Virus record (IMG/VR): IMGVR_UViG_3300030099_002957
Source: an uncultured virus (IMG/VR IMGVR_UViG_3300030099_002957)
Lineage: Duplodnaviria; Heunggongvirae; Uroviricota; Caudoviricetes
DNA: 24,088 bases
Direction: 5' to 3' (one strand)
Shown: positions 22,229 to 24,088 of the stretch, piece after piece
How positions within the stretch are numbered: position 1 is the first letter of the stretch
Layout: each line of letters begins with the position of its first letter
Notes under the pieces: model-generated
Database searches by the model: none
Told to the model about the DNA's origin: nothing
The model's input: the letters and a program-made list of their open reading frames with translations, nothing else
Position numbers and translations under genes: made by a program

Positions 22229-22339
22229 TTAGTTAATAATATGGTTTTCTATAAGTAATGCAACAATGATAAGTAATATCCCACAATAACTGTAGGATAA
22301 TACTCTCATTGAATATTTGTAACTATCATTTTTATACAT
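22229..22339 (-). CDS. Small hydrophobic peptide (36 aa), absent from the ORF track
   Basis: MYKNDSYKYSMRVLSYSYCGILLIIVALLIENHIIN*; TGATG coupling to the upstream gene; fills the gap. Confidence 0.55.
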   Translation of the reverse strand: MYKNDSYKYSMRVLSYSYCGILLIIVALLIENHIIN

Positions 22340-22566
22340 CATTTTACTTCATTGTCTTTCATCATCTTCTCCATTTCAACGTATAGTTTTTCATAGTCTT
22401 GCTCAAGAGCTTTGTTCTTTTCTTTTAACTCAATAATCTCAAGTTTATATTGAACAGCTTCTGTTGTTAGTCTGTCAACATCTTGCAATGCTCTTGTTAA
22501 TTCTAGATTCTTAGTTCTAATTTTTTGTTCTTCATCATAATTGATGTTGTTAATTGGTAGTGCCAT
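22339..22566 (-). CDS. Coiled-coil protein (75 aa)
   Basis: Heptad-like Leu/Glu/Lys pattern; first gene downstream of the twister ribozyme. Confidence 0.7.
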   Translation of the reverse strand: MALPINNINYDEEQKIRTKNLELTRALQDVDRLTTEAVQYKLEIIELKEKNKALEQDYEKLYVEMEKMMKDNEVK

Positions 22567-23562
22567 GTTTAATTAATTTTAGTTAATATTTTAGCTAATT
22601 GTGCTCACTCTGTATTTTCACGGGCTTGTGACCGTCCTTGGCTACATTAAGCACGAATTAGGGGATTACAAGTCCCAAAGTAATACCATCAGGTTTTTAC
22701 ACCTGTAAATCTCGATACATATTATACATCTCCCAATGTATTCTTATAATTACTAATCCACTTGGACGTCATAATTACATCAAATAATCTACTACAGATT
22801 AAAATATACTATCATCAGTCAAAGGCGTGACATCATAGATAGTTTAGTATCATACTAACAATCAGTTTGTTTTTACTTAATTATTAGTTATTACTTTAGA
22901 TGTATCCAACTGTTAAGTTAGTGAAGCTATAACATTTGTTATAACCTATTCGTCTGGATGACTATACATCTCTGTCCACTCTTGCTAGTACAAGTGTTAA
23001 CGACAGTTCTAATTCTAAGGAGTCTTGCAATACTCCCTACGCTATTCTGTTCTGGTCTCTATTACCGAGTGTGGTAGCCAGTTCCCCTATTTATCCACTT
23101 TTTACTATTAGTCTCCTGTAAGGACACACTAATAGTCATATTTAAAATAAAGAATAGTCCACATGCCTTACGGTTTACCACTGCAGGTTGTTATCCAAGA
23201 CGTTCTACTATTCTTTATTTGTGTTTAGTTAATGTTTAGGTTAAAAACTATCATGAGTGTCTTAGGTAATTATTTAGACTATTAGATACACACGACCTAA
23301 CCAAGACCATTACCCTTGGATCTCTCATGATAGTTATTATAAAACAACAACAGTAAGTTTACTACATGTTCTAGGTGAATATTAGAATATTCGATAAGTT
23401 TTAAATGTGGTTTCATCATCAGAACACTCCACTTTACCTTACCTGTTGTTGTTATAATGCAACCGTTGCCTCTATCTCTGGTCGGTTAACTACTAAGCAC
23501 CAACTAGTATTTATGCTTTTCGTGATTATTATAAGTTGCATTTGATTAGAAATGAACAGTTT
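22567..23562 (-). ncRNA. Array of tandem structured RNA domains (about 12 stem-loop units)
   Basis: No ORF of 60 aa or more. Consecutive inverted repeats with closing stems of up to 14 bp and short A/U linkers; most wobble pairs are G-U on the - strand; contains a twister ribozyme. Confidence 0.7.
22595..22661 (-). ncRNA. Twister self-cleaving ribozyme, type P1 (core 22601..22654)
   Basis: - strand GUGCU UAA UGUA GCC AAGG ACGGUCACAAGCCCGU GAAAA UACA GAG UGAGCAC aligns element by element with the rice twister as recalled (CCGCC UAA CACU GCC AAUG CCGGUCCCAAGCCCGG AUAAA AGUG GAG GGGGCGG), with compensatory changes. Confidence 0.95.
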
Positions 23563-23787
23563 CTACACTTGTTCAGGTGTTATTATTTTGTAACTATGGT
23601 TGTCCCAGAGTTTACGACTACATCTTCTTACAAGTGCAGTTGTTCTTCCTTCTAATGGAGTTTCATGTACATATTCTACAAACTTGTCATGTTTTTTAAC
23701 AAGTATACAATTAGATCTTCCAGACTCCATGTTAATTATTATACATCCTTCATTTCCTAAAGAGTATTCATTCATATTTATTCTCAT
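23563..23787 (-). CDS. Hypothetical protein (74 aa)
   Basis: ORF with A-rich leader immediately upstream of the RNA array. Confidence 0.6.
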   Translation of the reverse strand: MRINMNEYSLGNEGCIIINMESGRSNCILVKKHDKFVEYVHETPLEGRTTALVRRCSRKLWDNHSYKIITPEQV

Positions 23788-23938
23788 AGTGTTATATTGT
23801 ATTATATTAGTATTCTAGTTAATTGTCAAATTGTGTAGAAAAGTGGTGAATGTGATGTGGTACACACACTAACGAACAGTGTAATATACCACCCCACCCA
23901 TAGATTAGTAACAACATTGTTACAATCCCCACCTATAT

Positions 23939-23965
23939 AAAAAAAAGAAGAAGTCCTTAGACTTC
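23939..23965 (-). terminator. Intrinsic terminator overlapping a stop codon
   Basis: - strand GAAGUC-UAAG-GACUUC followed by UUCUUUUUUUU. Confidence 0.7.
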
Positions 23966-24088
23966 AACTTTTAGTGGTTTACCAGAATTGATTTCGTCCC
24001 AACGGGCGAAAGCAGATTCAAGACTGGTGTACACAACTTTTTCTTTGGTGTGAGTATCAGTTTTGGAATCAAAGGATTCTTCCGTGAT
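23957..24088 (-). CDS. 3' end of a gene truncated by the window edge
   Basis: Open frame ITEESFDSKTDTHTKEKVVYTSLESAFARWDEINSGKPLKVEV* ending in a terminator. Confidence 0.6.
   Translation of the reverse strand: MTEESFDSKTDTHTKEKVVYTSLESAFARWDEINSGKPLKVEV

Follow-up and report, generated by a model that had tools for sequence, protein, structure and literature searches.

Twister and pistol ribozymes are widespread, and little is known of what they do naturally in bacteria and phages. Self-cleaving ribozymes are also built into engineered transcripts such as RiboJ and Tornado, where they act as insulators or as makers of RNA ends, and the polycistronic early transcript of coliphage T7 carries irregular hairpins between its blocks and is processed by RNase III. 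The structures of the large phage RNAs GOLLD and ROOL have been solved, and we know of no established function for either. In published accounts, both are large, phage-encoded RNAs with an internal linker that lacks conserved sequence (PMC12286853), and ROOL, found in phages and prophages, is large and ornate and has a variable linker (PMC5737381, PMC12286853).

We analysed 24,088 nucleotides of DNA (hereafter the window) from an uncultured marine phage (IMG/VR record IMGVR_UViG_3300030099_002957) whose DNA polymerase is closest to those of crAss-like phages (~30% identity). A preliminary description, made from the sequence alone, had read positions 22567-23562 as a precursor of about 12 different tandem structured RNAs that ends in a twister ribozyme. 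Primase, helicase and polymerase genes lie downstream, and the kilobase is probably the transcribed leader of this replication operon on the minus strand (Table 1).

Table 1. Features of the locus in the window, listed in the direction of minus-strand transcription.
Feature	Position	Strand	Basis or remark
Terminator-like hairpin and T-run, end of the upstream 66-aa gene	23950..23965	-	predicted
Promoter-like site heading the operon	23801..23829	-	consensus scan: TTGACA, 17 nt, TATAAT; 12/12
Whole cassette (ORF74, modules, large RNA, twister)	22592..23785	-	blastn, junction alignment
74-aa ORF (ORF74), first cassette element; coding status uncertain	23563..23787	-	homologues
U1, weak hairpin-closed unit	23456..23542	-	z = -1.0
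U2, motif closed by 12-bp stem	23343..23453	-	five contigs; z = -2.75
U3, branched hairpin closed by 12 bp	23246..23335	-	z = -3.35
Copy of a recurrent intergenic/5'-UTR motif (ATTAACTAAACACAAATAAAG)	23212..23245	-	comparison with relatives
U4, hairpin closed by 14 bp	23145..23220	-	z = -3.83
U5, 9-bp hairpin	23104..23136	-	z = -2.99
U6 (extended), directly 5' of the large RNA	23052..23101	-	second copy of the AAAGUGGA...ACCACA motif
Conserved multi-helix RNA, ~389 nt, first hairpin to predicted twister cut	22649..23037	-	covariation
Hairpin 1 of the large RNA	23019..23036	-	loop with self-complementary UUGCAA, invariant in 13/13
A-rich internal linker of the large RNA, variable in sequence and length	22853..22889	-	variable columns, 13-sequence alignment
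Type-P1 twister ribozyme	22601..22654	-	RF03160, model match 22602-22653
Short AU-rich leader between twister and first replication-module gene	22567..22600	-	ATG at 22566

The conserved block upstream of the cassette stops at AATATAACAC, at about 23788, and relatives diverge from there. In an alignment of the promoter region from eight loci, TTGACA was kept in six and AATATAAC was invariant, while TATAAT at the window's spacing was not conserved. We infer that the site acts as a promoter; its consensus is of the sigma-70 type, a call that may not apply in the phage's host. The junction word WTATAACA, considered as a general promoter word, occurred 11 times in the window against 6.8 expected and was therefore rejected as not enriched. 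The close relative L004 lacks the whole cassette, and its promoter abuts the first gene of the replication module. ORF74 had three homologues (72-96% identity) with the frame open in each, and differed from that of L009 by 5 synonymous and 10 non-synonymous codons; it had no Pfam or PHROG match and no relative in the genome_contigs collection. ARAGORN found no tRNA or tmRNA genes in the window, and no terminator-like site was predicted in the leader that follows the twister.

The kilobase had been described as free of ORFs of at least 60 aa, and this held under four genetic codes. The longest table-11 ORFs within it were 40 aa (23297-23419, minus) and 46 aa (23405-23545, plus), and none of the alternative codes (TAG=Q, TGA=W as in table 4, TAA=Q) gave a frame spanning it. 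A pseudogene origin of 23050-23560 was rejected, as the small upstream ORFs of relatives had no sense-strand tblastn match there at E <1e-3. Folding against dinucleotide shuffles had been named in advance as a check, and the 996 nt folded better than these controls on both strands (minus, z = -3.57 and -249 kcal/mol; plus, z = -2.95; 0 of 20 shuffles as good on either strand). Taken one by one, the 12 proposed units behaved unequally: eight folded on their own with z <= -2.7 (U2 to U5, 23016-23039, 22898-22971, 22808-22843 and the twister), and the remaining four (23456-23542, 23052-23081, 22972-23006 and 22662-22800) showed no advantage over shuffles (z between -0.7 and -1.1).

Covariation in homologues, likewise named beforehand, was present for the ~389 nt ending at the predicted twister cut (n = 13 phage sequences). 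When eight sequences were aligned, 37 of 120 predicted pairs had changed on both sides and 98.8% of cells were paired, against 34-45% with the partners slid; the observed covariation was reached by 0 of 500 shuffles. In the 13-sequence alignment, compensatory changes were seen at 55 of 116 pairs. Three covarying long-range helices (23015-23009 with 22661-22655, 22897-22890 with 22684-22677, and 22851-22846 with 22719-22714) nest the units between 23039 and 22662, which had been thought self-contained and tandem, and about half of the supposed dozen different small RNAs are domains of this single conserved RNA. G-U pairs accounted for 169 of 1491 paired cells, and pairing was 98.9% on the minus strand versus 87.5% on the opposite strand. 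The view of the kilobase as non-coding structured RNA of the minus strand was borne out, its reading as about 12 different small RNAs was not supported, and the description as a whole was partly confirmed: judged by comparison with relatives, the 3' half is one large RNA and the 5' half (23050-23560) a variable mosaic of hairpin modules.

Within the linker of the large RNA the 3' part (UUGUUAGUA) is conserved; a 10-bp candidate pairing, with two covarying positions, could join it to the loop at 22990-22981. The large RNA keeps 74-81% identity in loci where the 211-aa protein next to it has only 39-42%, and by this measure it exceeds its neighbours in conservation. An ORF extends right to the 5' edge of the RNA in several relatives, with the stop codon directly before it. 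No Rfam family matched the large RNA, an 18-mer scan of species-representative bacterial genomes hit six places, none homologous past 20 nt, and we found no published description of it in the literature; one candidate preprint (10.64898/2026.03.07.710320) was not relevant. The invariant self-complementary loop of hairpin 1 is the only lead toward a homo-oligomeric assembly of the GOLLD/ROOL type.

The twister proposed at the 3' end proved to be of type P1, on the minus strand. It scored 54.8 bits against RF03160 (E 4e-11 over 1.7 kb) and fell below the Rfam gathering score of 67.2 because the P3 stem of the model is absent; the alignment was otherwise full-length (model positions 1-68). Among relatives carrying the large RNA, all seven that were scanned matched the model at 40-57 bits. 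Across 13 sequences, one P1 pair, three of the four P2 pairs and two P4 pairs had changed on both sides, with no broken cells in these three stems, and the core elements UAA (cleavage loop), GCC, AAGCCCG and GAG fitted the consensus and were invariant. The model's CCC and GGG are CAC and GUG in the window, a change on both sides that would keep a tertiary pair. The ribozyme starts at the column directly after the closing helix of the large RNA, with no spacer, and from the position of the scissile bond in the motif we presume that the cut falls between U22649 and A22648. A twister had been suggested to separate the RNA from the downstream mRNA, and it is real and suitably placed to do so. An extended P1 (CUAAUU with AAUUAG 3' of the ribozyme) was found in the window only and discarded as not conserved. 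Among INPHARED phage GenBank records only the twister core matched, in two gut phages (~90% over 42-44 nt) where its context differs from that in the window.

New ribozymes had been expected among the other units. At E up to 10 the twister was the only unit to match an Rfam ribozyme, and at the gathering score the whole window had no Rfam match. Hammerhead, pistol, hatchet, twister-sister and HDV-like models gave no match in U1-U6 of the window region (E up to 10) or in relatives carrying U2 or U4 (E up to 0.5).

The slot between the conserved upstream block and the replication genes was surveyed in 56 related loci for which 1500 nt or more of upstream sequence was available. Ten carried the ~390-nt RNA, eight carried GOLLD, none carried both and 38 carried neither (15 of these also scanned against Rfam, the others searched by nhmmer with our own profile and one GOLLD query). 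All eight GOLLDs exceeded the Rfam gathering score (193-226 bits, RF02032). In whole records, GOLLD was found in none of five carrying the ~390-nt RNA, one of them 100% complete, and the ~390-nt RNA in none of five GOLLD records, from all of which GOLLD was recovered as a positive control. The two states interleave in a tree of the 211-aa protein; L074, which has GOLLD, and L089, which has the ~390-nt RNA, are sisters there, to give one instance (SH-aLRT 80). The GOLLD model did not match the window at 22400-24088 (E up to 10) or seven loci carrying the ~390-nt RNA (E up to 0.5), and the GOLLD consensus has none of the conserved motifs of that RNA. Since no sequence or covariance-model similarity was detectable, genomic position is the one line of evidence for equivalence with GOLLD. 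Because 38 of the loci have neither RNA and L004 has no cassette, the ~390-nt RNA is dispensable. At the GOLLD-bearing locus L057, a pistol ribozyme (74.7 bits) ends one base before the GOLLD region on its 5' side; the other GOLLD-bearing loci had no ribozyme at E up to 0.1. Ribozymes flank large RNAs more generally at this locus, and we found no description of a GOLLD/ribozyme pairing in such phages in the literature.

Upstream of the large RNA, relatives have the modules in shuffled order or small ORFs in their place, and at least three modules (U1, U2 and U4) were found singly in other phages and in other orders. A 93% identical copy of U1 lies at a different position in L018/L056, and no compensatory change was seen in this comparison. 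In U2, GGUAAAGUGGAG, ACCACAUUUAAAA and UGUAGUAAACUU are invariant and a 5-bp stem covaries; 21 pairs were 100% paired, six having changed on both sides compared with 0-1 when the partners were slid, and the sequence would permit a possible GUGG/CCAC pseudoknot. For U4, a copy with 100% identity directly adjoins the large RNA in L015 and one with 93.8% lies upstream of GOLLD in L033/L046. U3 had no homologue in 109 loci and is unique to the window's phage, and U5 had none among the loci compared. The AAAGUGGA...ACCACA pattern occurs twice in the window against 0.00 expected by chance; U2 and U6 are copies of one small conserved pseudoknot-like motif, which is also found 5' of the large RNA in L060 and L061. 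Compared by eye, the U6 stem reads CUGG/CCAG in the window, CCAG/CUGG in L060 and CCCAGG/CUGGG in L061. Modules with this pattern lie just upstream of the 5' end of the large RNA. The ATTAACTAAACACAAATAAAG motif occurs in relatives directly before start codons and also just 3' of their twisters.

Parts of the kilobase were present in marine RNA-library contigs. Contigs from four marine metatranscriptome runs in three studies hold parts of the large RNA and cover 22732-23037 and 22652-22848. In two runs of one study the contigs stop at 23037, where hairpin 1 begins, and in a run of another study one stops at 22652, 3 nt away from the predicted cut; as contigs cannot show true RNA ends or strand, the latter is only a weak hint of self-cleavage. 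U1-U2 were covered by contigs apart from the large RNA. A metatranscriptome contig of one relative bridges the twister into downstream sequence and therefore represents either uncut transcript or carried-over DNA. No contig covered ORF74, U3-U6 or the downstream genes, and as missing contig cover is no proof of absence we give it no weight.

These data make it probable that the ~390-nt RNA is an accessory large phage RNA with a role equivalent to that of GOLLD, freed from the operon transcript by the twister. Minus-strand transcription from the promoter-like site would enter the variable zone with its 74-aa ORF and six modules, next cross the large RNA, closed by its long-range helices, and then reach the twister. 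The twister would cut itself near its 5' side and release the large RNA, which would then end in a 2',3'-cyclic phosphate. The downstream mRNA would carry a 5'-hydroxyl at its start, followed by what is left of the folded ribozyme, and this start would lie ~80 nt from the first start codon. Such a cut needs no terminator, and the replication genes would therefore still be transcribed. The released RNA would have to be stable, and it would most likely act in trans, in the same role as GOLLD. Weighing against this reading are the twister score below the Rfam threshold, the lack of similarity to GOLLD, the loci with neither RNA, the ORFs that reach the 5' edge of the RNA in several relatives, where no processing element is known, and the contig that bridges the twister. 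A further-reaching proposal, which we offer tentatively, is that it belongs to a new class of large ornate phage RNA functionally interchangeable with GOLLD, for which small self-cleaving ribozymes, the twister in the window and the pistol beside GOLLD in L057, would be the maturation enzymes. It may self-assemble through the invariant palindromic loop, as GOLLD and ROOL do, and the AAAGUGGA...ACCACA modules may define or protect its 5' end.

That about 12 independent small RNAs tile a precursor, each being excised and acting alone as a ribozyme, decoy or antitoxin mimic, is very unlikely. Such a precursor would account for U1, U2 and U4 occurring singly and in other orders, for the invariant unpaired stretches and covarying stem of U2, for the separate contig coverage of U1-U2 and for the eight units that outfold shuffles. 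However, the three long-range helices tie the units between 23039 and 22662 into one RNA, the twister alone matches an Rfam ribozyme, U3 and U5 lack homologues, U1 lacks compensatory change, and ORFs occupy the zone in relatives. The modules U1-U6 could instead be processing or stabiliser hairpins for a host RNase III-type enzyme, as in T7, with no functions of their own. Their perfect closing stems of 9-14 bp, irregular interiors and placement between cistron-like blocks of a polycistronic early transcript fit such sites, as does the presence of a module within 20 nt of the 5' edge of the large RNA in four loci (the window, L015, L017 and L060/L061). Yet a plain double-stranded site has no need for the invariant unpaired sequence and pseudoknot-like topology of U2 and U6, and relatives in which an ORF abuts the RNA do without such a hairpin, so that we consider this reading quite improbable.

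It is also unlikely that the large RNA is a purely cis-acting leader that insulates or stabilises the mRNA, caps the 3' end of the upstream mRNA or modifies the polymerase, as does the put RNA of phage HK022. The extent of its covarying multi-domain structure (~390 nt) far exceeds the needs of a stabiliser, GOLLD replaces it in sister phages, twister cutting would sever any tether to the polymerase, and L004 and 38 of the 56 loci manage without it. Such a leader would nevertheless suit an RNA that in every case sits on the coding strand, after the promoter and ahead of the first replication-module gene, with no terminator before the genes and, in several relatives, directly 3' of an ORF's stop codon. 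Lying immediately before the primase, helicase and polymerase genes and after a strong promoter-like site, the RNA would also suit the part of a transcript-dependent origin or primer RNA, for which RNA II of ColE1 and the origin transcripts of T7 and T4 are analogies. We regard this as highly improbable: L004 and most relatives that have these replication genes lack the RNA, an end with a 2',3'-cyclic phosphate would be unable to prime DNA synthesis, and no iterons or tandem repeats were noticed on reading the sequence.

What is new at this locus is that one conserved slot is filled by GOLLD in some phages of the group and by an unrelated ~390-nt RNA in others, and that ribozymes lie at its edges. 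The arrangement offers a concrete and testable role for the ribozymes, as makers of large-RNA ends inside operon transcripts, and the alternation of the two RNAs amounts to a natural swap experiment on GOLLD function. The ~390-nt RNA is a new large RNA for structural study, and the case illustrates that comparing relatives can turn what appear to be many small RNAs into one large RNA.

Compared with the early transcript of T7, processing at this locus would be at least partly autocatalytic, through the twister, and the main block is a non-coding RNA. A ribozyme splits an upstream RNA from a message in RiboJ and Tornado as it would in the window, where the arrangement is natural and conserved; Tornado-like circularisation is not indicated because only a 3' ribozyme is present. 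The twister shares P1, P2, P4 and the conserved loop nucleotides with the RF03160 model, lacks its P3 hairpin, and serves a defined purpose in the genome, placed where a large RNA ends. ROOL had no Rfam match in the window or in the relatives scanned, and it differs from the ~390-nt RNA in size and in context, with no tRNA genes nearby here. Like GOLLD (RF02032), the ~390-nt RNA is large, multi-helix and phage-encoded and has extensive covarying structure, and the two share a linker without sequence conservation, as described for GOLLD (PMC12286853). They differ in size, GOLLD often exceeding 800 nt, and the 3' twister is a feature of the ~390-nt RNA, although GOLLD in L057 is also flanked by a self-cleaving ribozyme.

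The region 22567-23562 had been described as a cassette of about 12 self-contained tandem structured RNAs in a stretch free of ORFs of 60 aa or more. No ORF of ≥60 aa was found between ORF74, a 74-aa ORF at 23563-23787 (−), and the first replication-module gene, and the region remained without an open frame when TAG, TGA or TAA was read as sense. Shuffled sequences folded less well than the 996 nt, whichever strand was taken (z −3.57 and −2.95). Taken singly, eight of the 12 units gave z ≤ −2.7 and four folded no better than shuffles. The units between 23039 and 22662 are not self-contained, as three long-range helices nest them. The twister ribozyme placed at the end of the array was recovered as a type-P1 match by a permissive Rfam scan, below the gathering score; at the gathering score the window gave no matches. 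No tRNA or tmRNA is present in the window. The observation in the preliminary description is confirmed in part and its interpretation partly supported.

Comparison with relatives shows that a single conserved RNA of about 389 nt (23037-22649, −), hereafter the large RNA, makes up the 3′ half. A search with an 18-base word from the region returned nine IMG/VR contigs, one being the window's own record, and all nine have in common a block of about 450 nt (window 23048-22578; 74-97% identity). Six matches of the word in bacterial genomes were rejected as chance. From eight sequences RNAalifold predicted 120 pairs, 37 of them changed on both sides (0-7 in slid controls), with 98.8% of cells paired versus 34-45% with slid partners; none of 500 shuffles reached the observed covariation. 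When five sequences found via the neighbouring protein were added (two of them much more divergent), 55 of 116 pairs were changed on both sides. G-U makes up 169 of the 1491 paired cells, and pairing reaches 98.9% on the minus strand versus 87.5% if the opposite strand is taken. Within the same loci the large RNA is 74-81% identical, versus 39-42% for the adjacent 211-aa protein.

The loop of its first hairpin contains a self-complementary UUGCAA invariant in all 13 sequences, whereas neither the sequence nor the length of an internal A-rich linker is constant. Two positions covary in a candidate loop-to-linker pairing of 10 bp. No Rfam family matched the large RNA in the window or the seven relatives scanned. 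Copies in three related phage loci (L018:2112-2602, minus; L054:367-858; L009:1539-1809) carry an extra 39-nt GC-richer hairpin inside one helix. At this point the large RNA accommodates an inserted domain.

The twister falls short of the gathering score for lack of the P3 hairpin of the model; it fits the family in structure and core, but not on the Rfam threshold. Its P1, P2 and P4 covary across 13 sequences, RF03160 was matched in 7/7 relatives scanned (40-57 bits), and P1 starts at 22654, the next base after the long-range closing helix. The predicted cut lies, presumably, at U22649/A22648, within the motif. About 90% identity, to the twister core only, was seen in two gut phage records (LR596903.1, 24288-24329; MT835475.1, 72147-72190). 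In Roseburia phage Shimadzu a twister core follows a broken integrase gene, a different context.

Features of the window and of related loci (L handles); all the GOLLD RNAs are located 5′ to the same replication-module genes
Feature	Position	Strand	Remark
Promoter-like site	23829-23801	−	perfect TTGACA-17-TATAAT consensus
Terminator-like hairpin	end of upstream 66-aa gene		sequence prediction
Intergenic motif copy	23245-23212	−	in relatives precedes start codons
Long-range helix 1	23015-23009 with 22661-22655	−	nests proposed units
Long-range helix 2	22897-22890 with 22684-22677	−	nests proposed units
Long-range helix 3	22851-22846 with 22719-22714	−	nests proposed units
Type-P1 twister	22602-22653	−	54.8 bits, E 4e-11; gathering score 67.2
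First replication-module gene	22339-22566	−	first gene after twister
GOLLD	L046:1835-2220		RF02032
GOLLD	L033:675-1060		RF02032
GOLLD	L074:1981-2348		RF02032
GOLLD	L090:1843-2212		RF02032
GOLLD	L058:1762-2144		RF02032
GOLLD	L062:1980-2349		RF02032
GOLLD	L057:2507-2889		RF02032
GOLLD	L071:2989-3380		RF02032
Pistol ribozyme	L057:2140-2206		RF02679, 74.7 bits; ends one base before GOLLD-homologous region

The 5′ half is a variable mosaic. Relatives have small sense-strand ORFs (51-144 aa) between the promoter block and the large RNA, several of which have as their stop codon the TAA or TAG at the conserved 5′ edge of the large RNA; no likeness of these ORFs to window 23050-23560 was found. Among the upstream hairpin modules, U1 (23456-23542) has a copy in L018/L056 (93% identity), and U4 (23145-23220) adjoins the large RNA in L015 (100%) and lies upstream of GOLLD, a large phage RNA, in L033/L046 (93.8%). 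U2 (23343-23453) adjoins the large RNA in L017 and occurs in three contigs without it. A search of related loci found no homologues of U3 (23246-23335) or U5 (23104-23136). U2 is a small conserved motif: across five sequences all 21 of its pairs are kept, six of them changed on both sides versus 0-1 in slid controls. Three of its unpaired stretches do not vary among the five, and neither does a possible pseudoknot between GUGG and CCAC. Two copies of the word pair AAAGUGGA...ACCACA are present in the window, versus 0.00 expected by chance. The second of them (23052-23101) immediately precedes the large RNA, and L060 and L061 have the pair at the same place with the stem changed on both sides, as judged by eye.

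A recurrent intergenic word, ATTAACTAAAC(A)CAAATAAAG, is found at window 23212-23245, after the twisters of L016, L018 and L054, and twice in L036, L065 and L106, mostly just 5′ of start codons. Genes here are without Shine-Dalgarno sequences, which would fit a Bacteroidota-type host. A non-coding module of about 190 nt upstream of GOLLD in L046 (1338-1536, matching L029:142-334 and L080:1615-1769) is common to a locus with GOLLD (L046), one with the new RNA (L080) and one with neither (L029).

ORF74, the first cassette element, has three homologues with an open frame in each. Because it differs from L009 by 5 synonymous and 10 non-synonymous codons, we regard it as a putative coding sequence only. 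A 72-aa ORF antisense to it (23600-23818, +) is 88% conserved in L009, equal to ORF74, and what is conserved in this stretch may be the nucleotide sequence.

The minus-strand replication module encodes an exonuclease, primase, helicases and a DNA polymerase (PHROGs), the polymerase being closest to those of crAss-like phages (26-30% identity). A marine metagenome scaffold and an IMG/VR record hold identical copies of the window sequence. The promoter-like block is kept in eight relatives up to an invariant AATATAACAC, beyond which the loci differ; since the −10 hexamer at the TATAAT spacing varies among them, promoter use is putative. L004 lacks window 22592-23785 entirely, and its promoter block adjoins the first gene. 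The cassette (ORF74, the non-coding kilobase and the twister) is therefore accessory, and this comparison sets its 3′ edge at the twister end. The first gene after the twister encodes 75 aa in the window versus 116 aa in L004, with only the first 50 residues alike (84%). A 988-aa ORF running off the window start (1-2967, +), on the strand opposite to all other genes, had no PHROG match.

Contigs from four marine metatranscriptome runs of three studies contain parts of the stretch. Two runs of one study gave exact contigs over 22732-23037 and 23313/23325-23559/23571 (U1-U2), and a further run an exact contig over 22652-22848, one end of which is 3 nt away from the predicted cut. In one run a contig from a relative spans the twister. 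Because ends and strand are unreadable and the libraries may contain DNA, these contigs indicate presence in RNA libraries and a weak hint on ends.

We propose that the operon transcript would carry the accessory elements first and the large RNA next. Twister cleavage would free the large RNA with a cyclic-phosphate end, and the downstream mRNA would begin some 80 nt upstream of the first AUG, with a 5′-OH and a ribozyme remnant. No terminator-like site was predicted between the large RNA and the replication genes, so these genes would stay expressed. As AATATAAC recurs at the 5′ edge of the large RNA, its 5′ end could be a transcription start in the ancestral arrangement; it could also be made by a host nuclease at the upstream modules, or the large RNA may undergo no 5′ processing at all.

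With a profile built on the conserved neighbour protein of 211 aa we collected 80 related loci, and nhmmer with the large-RNA profile matched 15 of them (one a contig-edge twister only, one partial and one the window's own record). An Rfam scan identified GOLLD in L046, on the same strand and upstream of the same genes. Searching with this GOLLD by nhmmer retrieved eight loci, 8/8 above the Rfam gathering score (193-226 bits) and all on contigs of marine phages that are relatives of the window. Upstream sequence of at least 1500 nt is available for 56 loci, some of them near-duplicates; of these, 10 carry the new RNA, 8 GOLLD and 38 neither. GOLLD was found in 0/5 whole records carrying the new RNA, one rated 100% complete, by a search that matched 5/5 GOLLD records as a positive control; conversely, the new RNA was found in 0/5 GOLLD whole records. 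The two states interleave when the 211-aa protein is placed on a quick maximum-likelihood tree, which needs at least seven changes for the new RNA and at least six for GOLLD; L089 (new RNA) and L074 (GOLLD) form a sister pair (SH-aLRT 80). Because sister phages have the unrelated GOLLD in this slot, and no co-occurrence of the two was seen, we infer that the large RNA may have an accessory role in trans equivalent to that of GOLLD. The pistol ribozyme of L057 is placed so that its predicted cut would make the GOLLD 5′ end; no ribozyme was detected in the other GOLLD loci at E up to 0.1.

The slot common to the large RNA and GOLLD is new here, and we found no description of this large RNA in the literature searched. 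GOLLD and ROOL assemble into cages made of RNA alone, in which a linker is disordered (PMC12286853), which offers a cage-like lead for the large RNA with its palindromic loop and variable linker; PMC5737381 covers the context of both. The printed GOLLD consensus and the new RNA have no conserved motif in common. The large RNA belongs to neither GOLLD nor ROOL and appears to be a new class among large phage RNAs, its 3′ end predicted to be ribozyme-made.
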